DNA of 64,000 nucleotides from a virus. A model generated the notes under the pieces. The model saw only the letters and a program-made list of their open reading frames with translations. It had not been told where the DNA came from and did not search any database. The stretch is from the IMG/VR virus record IMGVR_UViG_3300046314_000558, positions 1 to 64,000 of that record, one strand, 5' to 3'. Within the stretch, counting starts at the first letter, position 1. Each line of letters starts with the position of its first letter. Positions 1-9,744 of this stretch are shown in pieces. Both the position numbers and the translations under genes were made by a program.

Positions 1-214
1 GGGTGGACGGGGACGATTGTGCTGTGGTATGGCACCGAAAAGGTTGTTGGTTTTTCCTCATATAGGCCGCGTGTGGGTGGGCGCACTGGCATTTGTGAAA
101 ATAAAGGTCTACTAACCGCCCCCGTCTTGCAAACAAAAGTATACATAGGGTAAACACCTAGAAAATAATTCTAAAACTTGTTGACCGTGCGGGAATCTGT
201 GATATAATAAACCC

Positions 215-379
215 ATGACAACGAAACAACAAGCCATTGACGCAATCATGGCACATGACCCAAAAGCATACGGCATTGTTCAACATGACGAGAAAAATTT
301 TTCTGCACGCATTGGCTATTGCATTGCTTATTATGTTATAATTGACGGACAGATTAAAGGAGATGTATGGTATGAGTAA
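215..379 (+). CDS. Hypothetical 54-aa pre-early protein, apparently leaderless
   Basis: Hand-translated ORF (MTTKQQAID...WYE); ATG lies 6 nt after TATAAT (203-208). Confidence 0.6.
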   Translation: MTTKQQAIDAIMAHDPKAYGIVQHDEKNFSARIGYCIAYYVIIDGQIKGDVWYE

Positions 380-464
380 ACGAGAATTTTTTGATGCGCT
401 TGGTTTTGCCGCTTGCATTGCCTTGCCTTTTGTGTTATACTTTGCTTTTGTAATGAAACCCTGA
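372..464 (+). CDS. 30-aa hydrophobic membrane peptide
   Basis: MSKREFFDALGFAACIALPFVLYFAFVMKP; AAGGAG Shine-Dalgarno upstream. Confidence 0.5.
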   Translation: MSKREFFDALGFAACIALPFVLYFAFVMKP

Positions 465-477
465 TTAACTGGAGAAA

Positions 478-804
478 TTGATGACTACCAAGACTGTGAA
501 CTATACCCCTGAGCAAACTGCTCAGATTGTGGCTGACTATCAAGCCGGTGCAACTGTTGAGGCCATTGCTGAAGCATTGGGCAAAACTGTGCGCTCTGTT
601 GTTGCCAAGCTCTCACGCGAGAAGGTTTACAAGGCTAAAACTTATGTTTCTAAAACTGGCGAAGCTGTTGTAAAAAAGGATACTGTTGCTGACTACATTG
701 GCGAGGCATTGGGCTTGGCTGAGGCTGATACGGAATCGCTAACCAAGGCTAACAAAAACGCACTGAAGGCGATCGCTGATTTCATTAAGGCTGAAAAGAC
801 CTGA
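478..804 (+). CDS. T5 A2-like DNA-binding protein (paralog 1)
   Basis: YTPEQ..DYQAG..VEAIAEALGKTVRSVVAKLSREKVY HTH-like motif resembling T5 A2; GGAG SD; terminator follows. Confidence 0.75.
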   Translation: MMTTKTVNYTPEQTAQIVADYQAGATVEAIAEALGKTVRSVVAKLSREKVYKAKTYVSKTGEAVVKKDTVADYIGEALGLAEADTESLTKANKNALKAIADFIKAEKT

Positions 805-810
805 TTGATT

Positions 811-837
811 GTAGGGGCTTTGTGCCCCTGCTTTTTT
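811..837 (+). terminator. Rho-independent terminator
   Basis: GTAGGGGC-loop-GCCCCTGC followed by a T-run. Confidence 0.8.
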
Positions 838-853
838 GTGATATAATACACTC

Positions 854-991
854 ATGAACACAACACTTCAAAAACTCTACGCGGCCTGGTCACTGTCTGG
901 TGACTACTATGATGCAATAATGGACGGTATGCCCAACTGGGTTACTGATGACACTATTGATGACTGGTTTTATTCACAATTAGGAATGTAA
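854..991 (+). CDS. Hypothetical 45-aa protein, apparently leaderless
   Basis: Hand-translated ORF; ATG 6 nt after TATAAT. Confidence 0.55.
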   Translation: MNTTLQKLYAAWSLSGDYYDAIMDGMPNWVTDDTIDDWFYSQLGM

Positions 992-1174
992 AATGAGAAT
1001 TAATCCGGACGGAACAGTAAATATTAACTTACGAGAATTAGCCGATATTATCTCAGGACTTGCCTTAGAGGGATTATTAGAGTTGCCTGATAATCTAATG
1101 CAAAAAGCAGATAACGGACAATTATCTGTGATAATTGAAAATAAAGAGATTTGTATTTATTAATACCTGAGTTT

Positions 1175-1244
1175 GCAAACCAAAATGAGTACTTTGGTTT
1201 GCGGGCGCGCCAATATTATACCACATAATATTGGGGCGTGTCAA
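1175..1244 (-). promoter_or_regulatory. Leftward sigma70 promoter plus conserved hairpin (cassette 1)
   Basis: TTGACA-18nt-TATAAT on the minus strand, then GCAAACCAAAGTACTCA hairpin. Confidence 0.8.
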
Positions 1245-1370
1245 TGGTTTGGTGATTGATTTTTTCAATCGGGGCGATAGATAAATACAATCGAAATAAT
1301 TGTGTAAAGCGTGGACAATCGGGGAAAATCCGTGTATAATTGACACATCAACACAGAACAGAGGTTCAAA

Positions 1371-1847
1371 ATGGCAAAGATTACTAAAGTTAGCATTTAC
1401 GATATGGATGGTACTATCGTTTGCAGTTTGCACAGATACCGCACAATCGTTGACGATTCGGGCGAACGTATCGACTTGGATTACTGGAGACAAAATGAGT
1501 ATCGTGCTATGGATGATTCATTATTGCCATTAGCCGCACAATATCGCCGTGACTTGCAAGACGAAAACTGTTTTGTGATTATTGCCACTGCCCGTGTTTT
1601 GCGTGATGCTGATAATACATTTATTCGTGATGTATTGGGCGAACCTGATTATATTATTTCACGTTGCGATGGTGATACCACATCAGGCGGTAAATTGAAA
1701 ATTACCGGATTAACTAAGTTTTTTAATCTCAAGCCTTTTCAAAATGCTGAATTTACATTTTATGAAGATAATACCACTTATTTAAAAGCGGTTTGTGATC
1801 GCTTTAATATTCGCGGGGTTTATGTTCCGTCAAAACAAGGCCACTAA
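1371..1847 (+). CDS. HAD-superfamily phosphatase
   Basis: DMDGT motif I, TAR motif II, EDN motif IV; GAGG SD. Confidence 0.75.
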   Translation: MAKITKVSIYDMDGTIVCSLHRYRTIVDDSGERIDLDYWRQNEYRAMDDSLLPLAAQYRRDLQDENCFVIIATARVLRDADNTFIRDVLGEPDYIISRCDGDTTSGGKLKITGLTKFFNLKPFQNAEFTFYEDNTTYLKAVCDRFNIRGVYVPSKQGH

Positions 1848-2035
1848 TATATAATCCCCTAGGGGATTATCTGGAGAATAAAATGATTAATCGCATTAAA
1901 TTTTGGCTCAATATGTTATTGATTCCAATATACACTATTGTATTTTTTATTGTTGGGCAGAAACATTTATATAATGAATATAAAGGTGAATTAAAGCTGG
2001 CCATTAATGAAACAAAAAGAAAATACAATATAAAA

Positions 2036-2121
2036 TAACACTTTTGTTTGCAAACCAATTGTAATACTTTGGTTTGCAAAACTGCGCCAAAATTATACCA
2101 CATAATTTTGGCCCGTGTCAA
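2036..2121 (-). promoter_or_regulatory. Leftward sigma70 promoter plus conserved hairpin (cassette 2)
   Basis: TTGACA-18-TATAAT; TTTGCAAACCAA/TTGGTTTGCAAA inverted repeat. Confidence 0.8.
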
Positions 2122-2188
2122 GCTTTTTTGTATAACTTATTTTTTGTGTGTGTTTAAAACGCAACATTTTTTGTGGTATAATTCTCAC

Positions 2189-2572
2189 ATGGACAAAAAA
2201 GCACTCTTAACCCACATTCAGCGCGAGACTGTAATGATTTGGGATTCACTTTGCGAAATTTATACACCTTTGGTTCACTACAATGAACCCAAAATAGAAC
2301 TTAACCCTTACATTTGGCGTTGTGCGGGACAATGTTTTCAGGACGAAAACCGTATACAAATGGGTTACAAATTTTTCAAATGGAATACTAACTATTTCAA
2401 TACTATGATGGATGTGATTTTACCTCATGAAATTATACATCAAGCCGATTATAATTTATTCGGTGACTCTGAAAAAATTTGTGGTCACGGTGAAAAATGG
2501 CGTGAAATCATGGTAAACTATGGGCTTGAGCCTAACCCATATCACTCAATGGAGATTCCTAAAAATGCTTAA
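2189..2572 (+). CDS. SprT-like zinc metalloprotease-domain protein
   Basis: HEIIH plus GHGEKWREIM motif; true start probably the ATG at 2189, 6 nt after TATAAT. Confidence 0.75.
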   Translation: MDKKALLTHIQRETVMIWDSLCEIYTPLVHYNEPKIELNPYIWRCAGQCFQDENRIQMGYKFFKWNTNYFNTMMDVILPHEIIHQADYNLFGDSEKICGHGEKWREIMVNYGLEPNPYHSMEIPKNA

Positions 2573-2780
2573 CGTCTTGTCTTGGTTTGGTACTTTTGTT
2601 TCAATTTTAGGTTCGTTTGCAGTTGCAAGCGCAATGTTTAAAATTGGTTATGTTTTGTTTACTTTTGGTTCACTCTCTTGGCTTATCGTGGCTTGGGTCA
2701 AGCGTGACAAGGCTTTGGGGGTTTTGAACGGCACATTTTTTGCCGCTAACTTGTTGGGAATTTACAACAACTTTTTTTAA
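2565..2780 (+). CDS. Small membrane protein (about 3 TM)
   Basis: Three hydrophobic segments; GGAG SD. Confidence 0.6.
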   Translation: MLNVLSWFGTFVSILGSFAVASAMFKIGYVLFTFGSLSWLIVAWVKRDKALGVLNGTFFAANLLGIYNNFF

Positions 2781-2888
2781 ATTATTTTCGGGTTTTCTGG
2801 TTTTCCCACAAAAACCCTTGTATAATACATTCATACCGCAAAACGGCGGTATCCGCGAATTCCGGCGGTTCCGGTAATTGGATACAAA

Positions 2889-3587
2889 ATGGCTAAAAAA
2901 CAATTCTTTGCAATTCTTGACACTGAAACCACAATCGAAAATACCGTGGCTGATTTTGCGATTATTATCGTTGACCGACAAGGCAAAATTCACAATCAAT
3001 GCGCGGTTTTGATTAACGGCCATTATAATAATTTTGAATTGTTCCACGACAAAAAAGCCAATGATATTTGGGGATATGCGGGTTTGGAAAAACGCAAAGC
3101 CAATTATGTAAAAATGCTTGATAATGGCACGCGTATGCTTGCATCAGTTAATGCCGTTAATAAATGGATTAATCAAGCCATTGGCAAGTATAATCCAACT
3201 CTTACCGCATATAATCTGGCTTTTGATTTGGACAAATGCCAAAATACTGATATTGACCTTTCAGGTTTTAATTCCAAATTTTGTTTGTGGCAAGCCGCTA
3301 TTGGTAATATCTGCAATAGAAAACAATATCGTGATTTTGTTTTGCAAAATCACCTTTTTAATAAGCCTACAGTTAATCACAATATGACTTTTTCAACTAC
3401 GGCAGAATCAGTTTGTGGTTTTATTGACGGCGAATTTAAAATCGAGCCTCATACTGCCCTAGAAGATGCCCGTGATTTTGAATTACCGATTTTGCAAGCC
3501 ATTGTTAATAAGCGCGACTGGCGCGAGAAAATGACCCCTTATAACTGGAAACAGTTTCAGGTAAAAGATCACTTCAAAGCGGCTTAA
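2889..3587 (+). CDS. DEDDh 3'-5' exonuclease
   Basis: LDTET, AYNLAFD and HTALEDA motifs. Confidence 0.8.
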   Translation: MAKKQFFAILDTETTIENTVADFAIIIVDRQGKIHNQCAVLINGHYNNFELFHDKKANDIWGYAGLEKRKANYVKMLDNGTRMLASVNAVNKWINQAIGKYNPTLTAYNLAFDLDKCQNTDIDLSGFNSKFCLWQAAIGNICNRKQYRDFVLQNHLFNKPTVNHNMTFSTTAESVCGFIDGEFKIEPHTALEDARDFELPILQAIVNKRDWREKMTPYNWKQFQVKDHFKAA

Positions 3588-3624
3588 TATATAATAACCC
3601 TTCGGGGTTATTCAAAGGATTATC

Positions 3625-3873
3625 ATGGAATATATCGGATGGATTGGCTCAATATTATTGGCATTTTGTGGATTACCTCAAGCGTGGGAATCTTATAAAA
3701 CAAAATCGTCAGACGGATTAACTTGGGGATTTTTGATTATGTGGGGCGTGGGTGAATTATTTACAATTGTTTATATTATCCCAAAATGGCATTGGCCACT
3801 GATATTTAATTATACGGCCAACATTATATTTATTTCAATAATCACGTATTATAAAGTCAGGGGTAAAAAATGA
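3625..3873 (+). CDS. PQ-loop / SemiSWEET-like membrane protein
   Basis: LPQAW..YKTKSSDGLTW motif; 3 TM; 82 aa. Confidence 0.75.
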   Translation: MEYIGWIGSILLAFCGLPQAWESYKTKSSDGLTWGFLIMWGVGELFTIVYIIPKWHWPLIFNYTANIIFISIITYYKVRGKK

Positions 3874-4036
3874 AAGAATTAACCATTATAATTGGCGAAT
3901 ATATTGAAGATAATAAAAATCAATACGATATATTAACTGTGACTGATTCTCAGGAATGGGCGGAATATATAATTGAAATATATAATCGTGATTATGACAA
4001 TATACGTCAAGAAAAACATTATCTAAACGCTTAAAT

Positions 4037-4151
4037 AAAAAGCCCCACAAGGGGCTTTTTTGCGTTCAGAAACAAAAGTACTCACCACCAAAAATGAGTA
4101 CTTTTGTTTCTGGGCGCGCCGATTTTATCATTAAAATTGTGCCCGTGTCAA
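4037..4151 (-). ncRNA. Leftward promoter, about 80-nt hairpin sRNA and terminator (cassette 3)
   Basis: TTGACA-18-TAAAAT; perfect 18-bp inverted repeat CAGAAACAAAAGTACTCA (4067-4084 / 4095-4112); bidirectional terminator 4037-4061. Confidence 0.65.
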
Positions 4152-4326
4152 GTTTTTGGTAATAACTTATTTTTTGTGTGTGTTTAAAACGCAACACCAC
4201 ATTGTGCTATAATTTAGCCTTAGCAGGGAACGAATCAGCAAAGACCCCACAAAAAATAAGTCTTGCAAGACACCAAAAACCTGCTATAATATAGGCTTCA
4301 ACACACAACACACAAAGGAAACCAAA

Positions 4327-4656
4327 ATGTCTGCATCAAAAGCTGTTAACTATACCCCAGAGCAAACCACCAAAATGGTGGCCGATTATGCGGCTGGCGT
4401 GACCGTGGAAACCATCGCCGAATCACTGGGTAAAACTGTTCGTTCAGTTGTGGCCAAATTGTCACGCGAAAAGGTTTACAAAGCTAAAACCTACGTTTCT
4501 AAAACTGGCGCTCCAGTAGTCAAAAAGGATGCGCACGCAGATGCGATTGGCGCGATTTTGAGCATGACTGAATCGGAAATCGAATCGCTTACAAAAGCCA
4601 ATAAAACCGCATTGGAAAAGATTTTTTCAGCATTGGCAAATTCTAAGCCAATGTGA
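4327..4656 (+). CDS. T5 A2-like DNA-binding protein (paralog 2)
   Basis: Core nearly identical to 478..804; own promoter and AAGGA SD. Confidence 0.75.
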   Translation: MSASKAVNYTPEQTTKMVADYAAGVTVETIAESLGKTVRSVVAKLSREKVYKAKTYVSKTGAPVVKKDAHADAIGAILSMTESEIESLTKANKTALEKIFSALANSKPM

Positions 4657-4697
4657 TATAATGGGGGCTTGCCCCCCAATTTTTCAAGGAAACTAAA

Positions 4698-4949
4698 ATG
4701 CTTTTCAATTTGCCCTCATTTGCTGATAAACCCGTTATTTTAACTTTTTTACAATTGGGAATTAATCCCCAAGATTATAATGGCTGGACGTTTGCTAAAA
4801 TCCGTCCAGAATATATTAATATTGCGGCGGATTATTTTCTTGATATGTTTGGCGATCGTGATTATGAAACATTCCAGCATTATGAATGGGAAATTGATTA
4901 TCTGCAAGGATTAATTAAAATTCCACGTTCTGCTATACTGGGGGATTAA
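4698..4949 (+). CDS. Hypothetical protein
   Basis: ORF with AAGGA SD. Confidence 0.6.
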   Translation: MLFNLPSFADKPVILTFLQLGINPQDYNGWTFAKIRPEYINIAADYFLDMFGDRDYETFQHYEWEIDYLQGLIKIPRSAILGD

Positions 4950-4950
4950 A

Positions 4951-5151
4951 ATGTCAAAATACCGCATTGTAAAAATGAAATACTGCGATGTCAGCCATAA
5001 GGTTCAAAAAAGGATTTTTGGATTATTTTGGGTTGACACATATTGGCAGTATAAATCAATAAGGGATTGTGAATGGTGGATTAAGGATGAGCTAGAAACT
5101 GCGCGACTTAAAAAAGAAAATCCCCGCGATATTGTTGTGAAAACATATTAA
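4951..5151 (+). CDS. Hypothetical protein
   Basis: Coupled ORF followed by a terminator. Confidence 0.6.
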   Translation: MSKYRIVKMKYCDVSHKVQKRIFGLFWVDTYWQYKSIRDCEWWIKDELETARLKKENPRDIVVKTY

Positions 5152-5152
5152 T

Positions 5153-5286
5153 ATAAACCCGCTATAATGCGGGTTTATTTTTGGCCAAAATAAAATGTAA
5201 TACTTTTGTTTTCAGATAAAATTGCAAACAAAAGTATTACTTTTTGCTGCGCCAAAATTATAGCATAGAATTTTAGCCCTTGTCAA
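5153..5286 (-). ncRNA. Leftward promoter, hairpin sRNA and terminator (cassette 4)
   Basis: TTGACA-18-TATAAT; 15-bp inverted repeat GTAATACTTTTGTTT/AAACAAAAGTATTAC; bidirectional terminator 5153-5182. Confidence 0.6.
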
Positions 5287-5664
5287 GGGTTTTTGTAAAT
5301 ATATTTTTTGTGTTGTTTTTTTTTTTTTTGCACCTGGCACGATTCTTGCGCCGCAGGCCAAACGCGAATCATTCTCATTTGCATTCGCAATTGCGTGTAT
5401 GCGCATATAATTATATACTTATATAAGCCGTTGCTTATATGTGTACTTTAGTACACATGCGCTTTGCGCCAAAGTGGGTAAGTGGAAAAGCTTGCATAAT
5501 GCGCCAAAGTGGAAAAGCTTTTCAAATGCATATTTGTGGAGCTTCTTGCGCCAATATTATATAGTGGAAAAACTTTGCAAGTCAAGTGCAAAATTTTGCA
5601 CTTGCATAGTGCAAACACAAGTGGTATAATTATTTTAATAAGTGCAAAATTTGGAGTACAAAAA

Positions 5665-6327
5665 TTGAGAAAATACACACAAGAAGATAAAGAAGTGGTA
5701 AAGCTGTTGCTGGAGCAAGGCATGCCGCCACTAGAAGTAAGTGCAGAAACAGACATACCTGTAGGCACTATTAATGGTTGGAAGGGCAAATGGGGTATAC
5801 GCCACAAAAACTCTTATAAAGACTTGTACAAAGGTACAGTTGGTGAGGTACAGCAACGACTTATAAAAATAATGCAAGAAGCTCCCGAAGTTTGCTACAA
5901 CTACTTTAACAGTGCCAACAGCGGAGTACCTCCAGCAACAACTTACCGTAAATATTTTGGTACCTGGACTGCTGCACTTGAGGCTGCAGGAGTAGTTGCC
6001 AAAGAGGCGGGAGGTGGGCGAAACGTTCAAAAAGAAGATAAGGTTACACTGCTGTACTTGGTAGAATTTGAGGACTTTTACAAAATTGGTATTACTCAGC
6101 AAACAGTAGATCAAAGACTGGGCGGAAGATATCCCGCCTATAAAATATTGTGTACCAAAGAGTTCAACACGTTGGCGGAAGCTAAGCGTGAAGAAGCTAG
6201 GCTGCTTACCGAAGTTAAGCACAAGCAGTACATACCAACAAATTTTCCAGCTGAGGGTCGAGGTTTCACCGAATGCTTTAAGATGACAAAATCCGAATTT
6301 GAAGAATTTTTTCAAAAAATGTTATAA
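5665..6327 (+). CDS. GIY-YIG-family (Seg/T5orf172-like) homing endonuclease with N-terminal HTH
   Basis: LYLVEF..FYKIGIT motif; PPATTYRKYFGTWTAALEAAG endonuclease-associated repeat; TTG start after GGAG. Confidence 0.7.
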   Translation: MRKYTQEDKEVVKLLLEQGMPPLEVSAETDIPVGTINGWKGKWGIRHKNSYKDLYKGTVGEVQQRLIKIMQEAPEVCYNYFNSANSGVPPATTYRKYFGTWTAALEAAGVVAKEAGGGRNVQKEDKVTLLYLVEFEDFYKIGITQQTVDQRLGGRYPAYKILCTKEFNTLAEAKREEARLLTEVKHKQYIPTNFPAEGRGFTECFKMTKSEFEEFFQKML

Positions 6328-6535: not shown

Positions 6536-6847
6536 ATGATGACTAAAGCAACCACTCAAAACTACACCCCTGAGCAAACTACCGAACTCGTCGAAGGCTA
6601 CCAAGCGGGCAAAACCGTGGAACAACTCGCCGAGACCCTGGGCAAAACTGTGCGATCAGTAGTCGCCAAGCTCTCACGCGAAGGCGTGTATCAGGCCAAA
6701 ACCGCAACCCGTGGCGTTGCCCGTGTTAAGAAAGCCGAGCTGGTTGACCAACTTGCCCAAGCATGTGGCGTGGCTCCAGAAGTGTTTGAATCACTGGAAA
6801 AAGCCAACCATGACGTCTTGGAAGCACTGGTGGCCAAGCTGGGCTGA
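6536..6847 (+). CDS. T5 A2-like DNA-binding protein (paralog 3)
   Basis: YTPEQ..GKTVRSVVAKLSREGVY motif. Confidence 0.75.
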   Translation: MMTKATTQNYTPEQTTELVEGYQAGKTVEQLAETLGKTVRSVVAKLSREGVYQAKTATRGVARVKKAELVDQLAQACGVAPEVFESLEKANHDVLEALVAKLG

Positions 6848-8077: not shown

Positions 8078-8114
8078 GCGCCAAATTATACCAGTGCCTA
8101 ACCTATGCTGTCAA
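8078..8114 (-). promoter_or_regulatory. Leftward sigma70 promoter facing the ncRNA locus
   Basis: TTGACA-18-TATAAT followed by TGGCGC, same form as the cassette promoters. Confidence 0.75.
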
Positions 8115-8237: not shown

Positions 8238-8549
8238 TTATTGTGATTTAGGGTCAGATAACCGCGATTCAATCAATTTAAGTACAACTTTGTTGACCTT
8301 TTCCAGGGATTCCAGCAATTCCAGGTCGCAGTCGAGCAAGGTGGCAATCCGCTCGATGTGTTCCGATTTTTTCACTGGAATTTCACCGCGCTTGTTAACA
8401 TAGGATTTTTTCTGGTAGACTCCAAGGCTTGAGAGCTTGGCAATTATGCTACGAACCGGCACATCCAGCTGGTCAGCTAGCTGTTCAACTGGCACCCCGG
8501 ACTGGTAGTCGTGTACTAGACGGTCACAAATTTCTTTGGTGTATGTCAT
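8238..8549 (-). CDS. A2-like DNA-binding protein (paralog 4)
   Basis: DYQSG.PVEQLADQLDVPVRSIIAKLSSLGVY motif; AGGAG SD; terminator 8186-8220. Confidence 0.7.
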   Translation of the reverse strand: MTYTKEICDRLVHDYQSGVPVEQLADQLDVPVRSIIAKLSSLGVYQKKSYVNKRGEIPVKKSEHIERIATLLDCDLELLESLEKVNKVVLKLIESRLSDPKSQ

Positions 8550-8559
8550 TGTGCGCTCC

Positions 8560-9351: not shown

Positions 9352-9744
9352 AGTAGTAGTCTAAAGAAAGATTTTGCTATAAGCCAGCAAAAAGCTGTTG
9401 TGACCCTAAATCTTGGCGATCCGGAGTCGGGTGGTGGAAAGTGGGACAAAAGTTTTGGTTCGTGTATTTTTGCACTTGCTTTAAAACACACAAACACAAT
9501 AATCCCAACTTAGCGGGTAACTTGGCTTGACTAACCGAATCAAGAAAAATATCTGCTGCTCACGCCCCTTCGCTCCGGGACTCCGCGGTGGGACTACAGC
9601 AAGAATTTTATCTAATTCGGTTGTCACCAAGTTTATATCATCTAGTAATATAACTAAATTATAGCACATCGGGCAGCATATTGTCAATGCCTAGATTTTT
9701 AGTGGAGGTGTGCAATGATTTTTATTGTCAGGCTAGCGCTGGGC

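Follow-up and report, generated by a model that had tools for sequence, protein, structure and literature searches.

Backward promoter-hairpin modules in the pre-early zone of an uncultured T5-like phage

Host-type promoters which point against the neighbouring genes and yield a short structured RNA ending at a terminator are familiar from the oop RNA of lambda and the leftward A0 promoter of T7. Strand-biased short words are exemplified by Chi sites and by Type III restriction sites, the latter being kept in one orientation as in T7. For T4-type phages, promoter-early stem-loop cassettes (PeSLs) have been described (Arbiol et al. 2010, PMC2839356), in which a stop codon, a stem-loop, an AT-rich tract, a promoter, a Shine-Dalgarno sequence and the ATG follow each other in the direction of the gene (PMC2839356). 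Four unique major nick sites are annotated in the T5 genome record (AY587007) with the motif CCC(T)GCGC, and two of these sites are part of palindromes. T5-type nicks have been placed in the minus strand by the BF23 paper (PMC10644984), and both the nicks and the repeat-rich injection-stop region of the terminal repeat have been documented (AY587007; Davison 2020, 10.1101/866236). Here we analyse repeated cassettes from an uncultured relative of T5, each of which joins a promoter directed against the genes to a hairpin. The window, i.e. the whole stretch of DNA that was analysed, comprises the first 64 kb of a 99,859-bp IMG/VR virus record (IMGVR_UViG_3300046314_000558).

Promoter, GGCGC and hairpin as a repeated module

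The window has four cassettes, C1 to C4, all of them encoded on the minus strand. They are local representatives of a module family which occurs throughout a clade of uncultured freshwater T5-like phages and which has so far not been described. Judged by its similarity to T5, the part of the window in which they are found (the first 5-8 kb) corresponds to the T5 pre-early (first-step-transfer) region. We lean towards the view that the modules are inverted PeSL-like boundary and exchange modules which fire short dead-end hairpin RNAs. On the minus strand, such a module consists of an A-rich upstream tract, a consensus -35 box, an 18-nt spacer, TGnTATAAT, 0-4 bases, GGCGC and a hairpin; the 3' part of the spacer pairs with its own -10 box and discriminator, and the near-perfect hairpin begins within about 5 nt. 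Host RNA polymerase would fire from these backward promoters in the first minutes of infection, and the products would be very short dead-end RNAs of about 35-120 nt, with a 5' hairpin which is often followed by the bidirectional terminator of the upstream gene. Backward firing would thus close each rightward gene cassette, while the conserved promoter may act as a homology patch for cassette exchange, in the manner of an inverted PeSL. GGCGC may add a polar function at the level of DNA, possibly as a nick site.

The first-pass annotation had reported near-identical leftward promoters which have no open reading frame (ORF) to transcribe and which lead into inverted repeats with a common core, and this description was borne out. 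Three of the promoters (1244-1215, 2121-2092 and 5286-5257, minus strand) read TTGACA-18-TATAAT, with agreement at 12 of 12 positions and with the TG, and the fourth (4151-4122, minus strand) reads TTGACA-18-TAAAAT, the set matching TTGACA-18-TGnTAWAAT at 11-12 of 12 positions. All point against the genes, and each leads through a GGCGC, which comes 0-4 nt after the promoter, into a core-built hairpin. The genes use extended -10 promoters of their own at a distance of 60-140 bp from the backward promoters. One of these rightward gene promoters (1312-1340, plus strand) stands back to back with C1 and belongs to the 75-nt repeat family D2; its counterparts are found at 2153-2182 for C2 and at 4184-4213 for C3, also on the plus strand.

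The cassettes differ in their hairpins. In C1, the hairpin (1175-1202) contains a core at 1188-1200 and a partial inverted copy, next to GGCGC at 1207-1211 and to the backward promoter at 1215-1244 with its spacer/-10 palindrome. C2 has two direct cores (2037-2049 and 2063-2075, within 2037-2080) and a hairpin at 2047-2080, with GGCGC at 2084-2088 and the promoter at 2092-2121. Direct core copies are carried by both C1 and C2. The inverted repeat of C3 (4067-4112, arms 4062-4084/4095-4117) holds convergent cores, at 4070-4082 on the plus and at 4097-4109 on the minus strand, and is adjoined by GGCGC at 4116-4120 and the promoter at 4122-4151. In the inverted repeat of C4 (5197-5240, arms 5192-5214/5223-5245) the cores are divergent, at 5199-5211 on the minus and at 5226-5238 on the plus strand, with GGCGC at 5249-5253 and the promoter at 5257-5286. 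The flip of arm order between C3 and C4 had been recognized before and was confirmed.

As had also been proposed, two of the four units end at terminators. The predicted RNA of C3 has 82 nt (-46 kcal/mol, z -9.4) and that of C4 has 103 nt (-33 kcal/mol, z -7.1); in both, a hairpin is followed by a U-run at the end, and both end at bidirectional terminators which they have in common with the upstream genes (4037-4060 for C3, 5153-5178 for C4). These two cassettes are thus discrete units of promoter, structured body and terminator. C1 (-16.7 kcal/mol, z -4.5) and C2 (-14.2 kcal/mol, z -1.9) are devoid of a terminator. Judged by these z-scores, the predicted minus-strand RNAs are much more stable than shuffled sequences, with C2 showing the smallest margin.

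Two promoters of the same class were found in addition to the four described initially, at 5585-5556 and at 8114-8085. The latter is part of TTGACA-18-TGGTATAAT-TT-GGCGC (8078-8114, minus strand), which is without palindrome. The former belongs to a non-coding repeat zone (5348-5585, minus strand), which contains a T5-like 20-mer, GGCGC at 5348, 5466, 5501 and 5548, and the promoter at 5556-5585. The copies at 5348, 5466 and 5501 are promoter-less.

When 77 related viral loci were gathered by a search with the A2-like protein described below, they contained 295 distinct units of backward promoter plus GGCGC, while none of 70 forward promoters of comparable strength carries GGCGC. There are 5-8 near-identical copies of the backward promoter per genome. 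In nine-tenths of the units (267 of 295, 90%) a near-perfect hairpin begins -2 to +5 nt after GGCGC. Over the first 60 transcribed nucleotides, the folding energy averages -18.5 kcal/mol, compared to -7.9 kcal/mol for shuffled sequences and -9.4 kcal/mol for other promoters. A leftward terminator-like site occurs within 130 nt in 128 of 289 units (about 44%) but in only 22 of 289 random windows, and the predicted RNA lengths cluster at 30-40 nt and at 60-120 nt. In six whole genomes, modules are confined to the pre-early zone and to one orientation; in the phage of the window, no such unit was found beyond the first 10 kb of its 100-kb genome.

Two further readings were considered and dropped. 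That the hairpins are in general mere rightward terminators is disfavoured by the linker to GGCGC of only 0-5 nt and by the usual lack of a T-run, and also by the separate terminators of C3 and C4. A rightward promoter hidden in the palindrome would be 20-22 nt away from any -35-like hexamer.

The hairpins belong to several families. The core family accounts for 119 units, further families have GTGTTGT, AATAACCC, ATAAGGG or other palindromes as their basis, and up to five kinds occur within one genome behind the same promoter class. With regard to the conservation of the core in related phages, on which the first-pass annotation had made its proposal depend, the core family is confined to one sub-lineage, the core is absent from one relative (locus L026), and other sub-lineages use unrelated hairpins. 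In L026, which keeps the gene order of the window, different hairpins occupy the homologous positions. As unrelated perfect hairpins stand behind the same promoter in other sub-lineages, the shared function of the module is independent of the core. The core is not needed for the general role of the module and is the local hairpin filling of this sub-lineage.

Evidence for exchange comes from the module borders. Gene order is shuffled among the relatives, with modules at the borders, and stretches unique to this phage lie directly to the left of C1-C4 (850-1150, 1880-2030, 3870-4040 and 4950-5150), where ORFs unique to this phage (ORFans) adjoin the cassettes. We aligned contigs from four metagenome runs to the window and found that co-occurring strains diverge just left of GGCGC (2080-2084, 5248 and 1210), where they carry other hairpins, and also at the -35 edge of C2 (2121-2127). 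Because divergence sets in at GGCGC and at the -35 edge, the promoter of about 40 bp is a conserved island between exchangeable flanks. As possible traces of recombination between copies, which would yield deletions or mini-circles, contig joints were seen for 1847->2885 and 1185->2063, but these have short sides or low depth and may represent no more than related strains.

Several points weigh against boundary and exchange modules with dead-end RNAs. Promoter activity and RNA ends are predictions, and recombination at the modules is deduced from breakpoints. Units without a -10 box exist (TTGACA...CACT-GGCGC-hairpin), and therefore part of the module function may not need initiation at this site. 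In about half of the units, a leftward terminator cannot be recognised. Hairpin mismatches, counted in the leftward sense, are A.C in 21 and G.T in 10 cases, so that the wobble test does not favour a leftward RNA. Finally, the -10 palindrome and the avoidance of GGCGC across the genome, to which we now turn, are not accounted for by a short RNA on its own.

Strand bias of GGCGC and rival explanations

Depletion of 5-mers was measured against a maximal-order Markov expectation for six pooled genome bodies, i.e. the genomes outside the pre-early zone. On the module strand, GGCGC ranks first for depletion among all 1024 5-mers (97 seen, 224 expected, z -8.5), whereas on the other strand it is as frequent as expected (235 vs 243). 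Every other strongly depleted 5-mer is depleted on both strands. In the genome of the window, outside the pre-early zone, there are 10 copies on the module strand and 41 on the other strand, which is rank 1 of 512 for strand skew. The depletion holds in genes of both directions: plus-strand genes have 0.486 copies per kb in sense and 0.087 in antisense, minus-strand genes have 0.203 in sense and 0.345 in antisense. From these counts, GGCGC looks like a strand-specific DNA signal which is avoided by the rest of the genome. Independently of the module, other words are also strand-skewed in the six genome bodies (GTTCGA 186 vs TCGAAC 51; GGTTCGA 98 vs 17), and GACCC and CCGCC are over-represented.

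A second property concerns the promoter itself. The spacer pairs with its own -10 box and discriminator and covaries with them: TACAAT is accompanied by ATTGTA and TAAAAT by ATTTTA, and the discriminator variants ATT, T and C occur together with their complements in the spacer. The longest spacer complement to the own -10 arm averages 8.0 nt, compared to 5.1 nt with the arm of another class, and among 113 promoters of minority classes, 87 show a better fit to the own arm and 11 a worse one. Because the spacer/-10 hairpin precedes the predicted start, the backward RNA of that promoter cannot include it. The depletion of GGCGC on the module strand and the covariation of the spacer with its own -10 box are new findings.

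A tentative alternative to boundary and exchange modules is that the essential part is a polar DNA signal, with the minus-strand GGCGC between two hairpin-forming palindromes marking a strand-specific DNA transaction. The leading candidate would be a single-strand interruption of the T5 type, with a brake for injection or packaging or an end-protection site as alternatives, and the promoter would be secondary, e.g. by opening the DNA or covering the site. The modules would then be programmed strand-specific DNA sites (T5-type nicks, or polar brake or protection signals at entry or packaging), with GGCGC on one strand as the signal and a palindrome folding on either side of it. Each site would be embedded in a consensus host promoter, through which RNA polymerase could open, cover or read it on the incoming genome; we put this forward as a possibility which we consider less likely than the exchange module. 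The strand bias in both gene directions argues for a polar signal, as do the nine minus-strand copies of GGCGC in the first 8.1 kb, five of them within 5249-5552 beside the T5-like injection-stop repeat. The copies lacking a -10 box keep the context TTT[GC]CACT-GGCGC-AG as well as the following hairpin. The T5 nick sites annotated as CCC(T)GCGC, with two of the four in palindromes and with T5-type nicks in the minus strand (PMC10644984), point in the same direction. However, the overlap with the nick motif of T5 is limited to GCGC. T5 itself has neither a strand skew of CTGCGC (23 vs 18) nor such modules, and no comparable backward promoters were found in the T5 terminal repeat. The surviving minus-strand copies in the genome bodies are mostly in the module-like context T-GGCGC-A, which is the least depleted one (46 vs 68). 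The nicks are candidates, and avoidance of Type III restriction or a Chi-like site could yield a similar strand skew. These two are thus candidates beside a nick, and so is a signal which brakes or stops the transfer or packaging of DNA. If the polar site were true, it would be the first sequence-level handle on T5-like strand interruption and on the marking in cis of first-step-transfer DNA, and transcription, DNA structure and strand-specific processing would be linked in a way which has not been described for any phage.

The remaining explanations rely on the backward RNA or on the core. The core, AAACMAAAGTAYT, has 13 matches with at most one mismatch in the 64 kb, with 1.12 expected, and none of 100 shuffled sequences reached this number. 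Nine of the matches are within the first 5.3 kb, including one at 2589 inside an ORF, and the eight copies which had been listed by the first-pass annotation are at 131, 1188, 2037, 2063, 4070, 4097, 5199 and 5226. The first of these is a solo core (131-143, plus strand) which lies at the left edge of the pre-early zone and lacks an adjacent backward promoter. Relatives carry two direct cores, 32 nt apart, at this border, which are also promoter-less and beside a conserved element. The copy inside an ORF (2589-2601, minus strand, one mismatch) lies in the gene of a small membrane protein (2568-2780); most core-bearing relatives have it at the corresponding position as well, and it may be kept only by the protein sequence G-T-F-V-S.

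The core logo is asymmetric, roughly ttG-C-AAACAAAAGTAYT-C/A-a. The first copy begins 6-10 nt after GGCGC, and the start-to-start distance within pairs is 26-28 nt irrespective of orientation. When distinct cassettes are typed in transcript sense (F, forward core; R, reverse complement), we find RF 43, FF 37, single F 23, FR 14 and RR 1 times. It is thus the sequence of the core, and not one fixed fold, which is conserved, as had been suggested. In the pre-early zones of four core-bearing genomes there are 33 cores on the minus and 7 on the plus strand, while elsewhere they are at background level. Counts and orientation bias indicate a sequence constraint with a preferred strand, which fits a bound factor. 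Judging from this pattern, the core is probably a binding site for some factor, though not for the A2-like proteins. Among phage ORFs, only a 30-aa peptide (372-464) loosely co-occurs with the core; this candidate was dropped, being confounded by relatedness, short and hard to detect.

The first-pass annotation had proposed that the modules provide immediately expressed decoy RNAs, the core acting to titrate a protein of host defence or an RNA-binding protein, and we consider this doubtful. The very strong promoters, the discrete hairpin-plus-terminator units of C3 and C4, the strand-biased conservation of the core, the excess of direct over reverse pairs in transcript sense (37 vs 1) and the fixed register are in its favour. 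Yet sister lineages have unrelated hairpins behind the same promoter, L026 manages without the core, and the core occurs without a promoter at the left border. A search of positions 1-6000 against Rfam with permissive thresholds gave only sub-threshold chance matches and no matching family. CRISPR-like or antitoxin-like arrays of the core, for which a scan had been advised at the outset, did not turn up in 596 Gb of prokaryote genomes, where the scan covered convergent core pairs only and returned five unrelated chance terminators.

More improbable still is antisense control in the manner of the lambda oop RNA, in which base-pairing of the backward RNAs with upstream pre-early mRNAs, at their 3' ends or terminator hairpins, would set the time of decay or shut-off. 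Each module is directed into the 3' end of the cassette upstream of it, transcription from the terminator-less C1 and C2 would extend in antisense into the ORFans (993-1163 and 1883-2038), and the mechanism of pre-early shut-off in T5 is unexplained (10.1101/866236). However, units followed by a terminator would overlap in the terminator hairpin only, and neither the avoidance of GGCGC nor the -10 palindrome is accounted for.

The A2-like proteins are four helix-turn-helix paralogs, which are also GcrA-like (481-804, 4327-4656, 6536-6847, and 8247-8555 on the minus strand). Relatives carry 3-4 copies, and the helix G-K-T-V-R-S-V-V-A-K-L-S-R-E is almost invariant, the predicted helix-turn-helix GKTVRSVVAKLSRE being the same in phages with and without the core. 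As the recognition helix is invariant irrespective of the core, the A2-like proteins are rejected as its reader. The idea that core pairs are operators for these amplified DNA-binding proteins, which had been raised initially, is thus very hard to uphold: the paralogs are interleaved with the modules and the paired sites lie just downstream of the transcription start, but the A2-like proteins of the core-less L026 are 86-90% identical to those of the window, the core lacks symmetry and its pairs are found in direct, convergent and divergent arrangement, and neither site-reader covariation nor dyad symmetry was found. If A2-like proteins bind the module, the parts common to all modules, namely the spacer/-10 palindrome or the TTTTSCACTKG boxes, are better candidates.

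The surrounding pre-early zone

The assignment of this zone is based on several similarities to T5. The gene at 1371-1847 resembles T5 dmp (36% identity across 86 residues, E 8e-15), and the helix-turn-helix paralogs of 107-109 aa have a weak likeness to T5 A2 (E 0.02). The 20-mer at 5366-5385 matches T5 9582-9601 in 19 of 20 positions; this is a direct repeat of the injection-stop repeat region, which sits about 70 nt from T5 major nick 1, and the 20-mer of the window lies 14 nt from one of the GGCGC copies. The DNA polymerase shares about 48% identity with its counterparts from T5-like phages of Vibrio and Pantoea. Among 50,697 cultured phage records, neither the pre-early region nor the promoter module has a nucleotide match, and the A2-like protein has no match by tblastn. 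The public runs which contain this DNA are all labelled freshwater metagenome, and none is an RNA run.

Further elements were noticed around the repeat zone. A palindrome AAGTGCAAAATTTTGCACTT is located at 5584-5603, with a further copy of AAGTGCAAAAT at 5640-5651, and the 12-mer AATTTTGCACTT from this area (5584-5651) is identical to T5 3796-3807. Related boxes of the type TTTT[GC]CACT[TG]G are found again in relatives, within their non-coding repeat zone, and also in the spacer of the promoter at 8114. The adjacent ORF (5665-6327) codes for a homing-endonuclease-associated repeat and a T5orf172/MUG113-type domain and has a coverage of 0 in related loci. It is inserted beside the injection-stop-like repeats, which may be compared to the HNH gene of T5 between repeat regions 1 and 2. 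A pre-early protein of 232 aa (2889-3587) has no Pfam match, but its N-terminal ILDTETT resembles, by eye, the first motif of DEDD-type exonucleases.

At the left border, a conserved element (60-110, in minus sense GGGGCGGTTAGTAGAC ... CCCACCCACACGCGGCCTAT) is found between the first rightward promoter and the leftward gene at the opposite end of the record. On the right (99,760-99,859), the record closes with G-rich repeats of the GGGTGG type; this is possibly the genome terminus or a packaging site. In nine related loci, a perfect or near-perfect parS-type palindrome of the chromosomal type, TGTTTCAC[G/A]TGAAACA, adjoins one of the backward-module hairpins at a homologous position (L006:3885-3900, L007:3714-3729, L026:3644-3659, L027:3864-3879, L059:3936-3951 and L060:3847-3862 among them); none was found in the window.

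Comparison with known systems

The element brings together a host promoter directed against the genes, a word avoided on one strand, exchangeable hairpins and strain breakpoints at its edges. It touches questions which are general for T5-like phages: how the first-transferred DNA is marked and handled before phage proteins are available, what the role of one-strand nicks is, and why pre-early genes turn over so fast. The module can be synthesised and studied in vitro without culturing the phage.

Like Chi sites and the Type III sites of T7, GGCGC is a short asymmetric word with a strand asymmetry which is independent of gene direction. It differs in that the depleted orientation is the one which is concentrated in the pre-early promoter-hairpin modules, and in that the bias is partial (97 vs 235). 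The lambda oop and T7 A0 promoters are single copies, whereas here each genome has its set of near-identical promoters with exchangeable hairpins.

The T5 nick sites, the nearest precedent for the polar word, have the GCGC core in common with the modules, and in both systems palindromes abut the site. On the nicked strand of T5, a purine precedes GCGC, and all module copies read G-GCGC on the minus strand, i.e. with a purine at this position. The extended T5 motif CCC(T)GCGC is not matched, as the plus strand reads (C)TGCGCCAA or GCGCGCC. A further likeness is the nearly identical 20-mer, which is near GGCGC in this phage and near major nick 1 in T5. In contrast, the T5 motif is promoter-less and its four sites are spread over the genome, while the sites described here cluster in the pre-early zone; also, the T5 6-mer lacks the strand skew.

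Among the closest counterparts are the PeSLs, whose concept the modules match but from which they differ in several respects. The promoter of a PeSL drives the ORF which follows it, while the modules point against the genes and into a hairpin. They have an invariant GGCGC and a spacer which pairs with its own -10 box, the genes being served by separate extended -10 promoters, and they are found in a T5-like rather than a T4-like phage. Both, however, are repeated cassettes which combine a strong sigma-70-type promoter with an adjacent stem-loop, both are located between small non-essential or orphan genes of an early region which is hyperplastic, and in both the degree of conservation is sufficient for a role as homology patches in modular shuffling.

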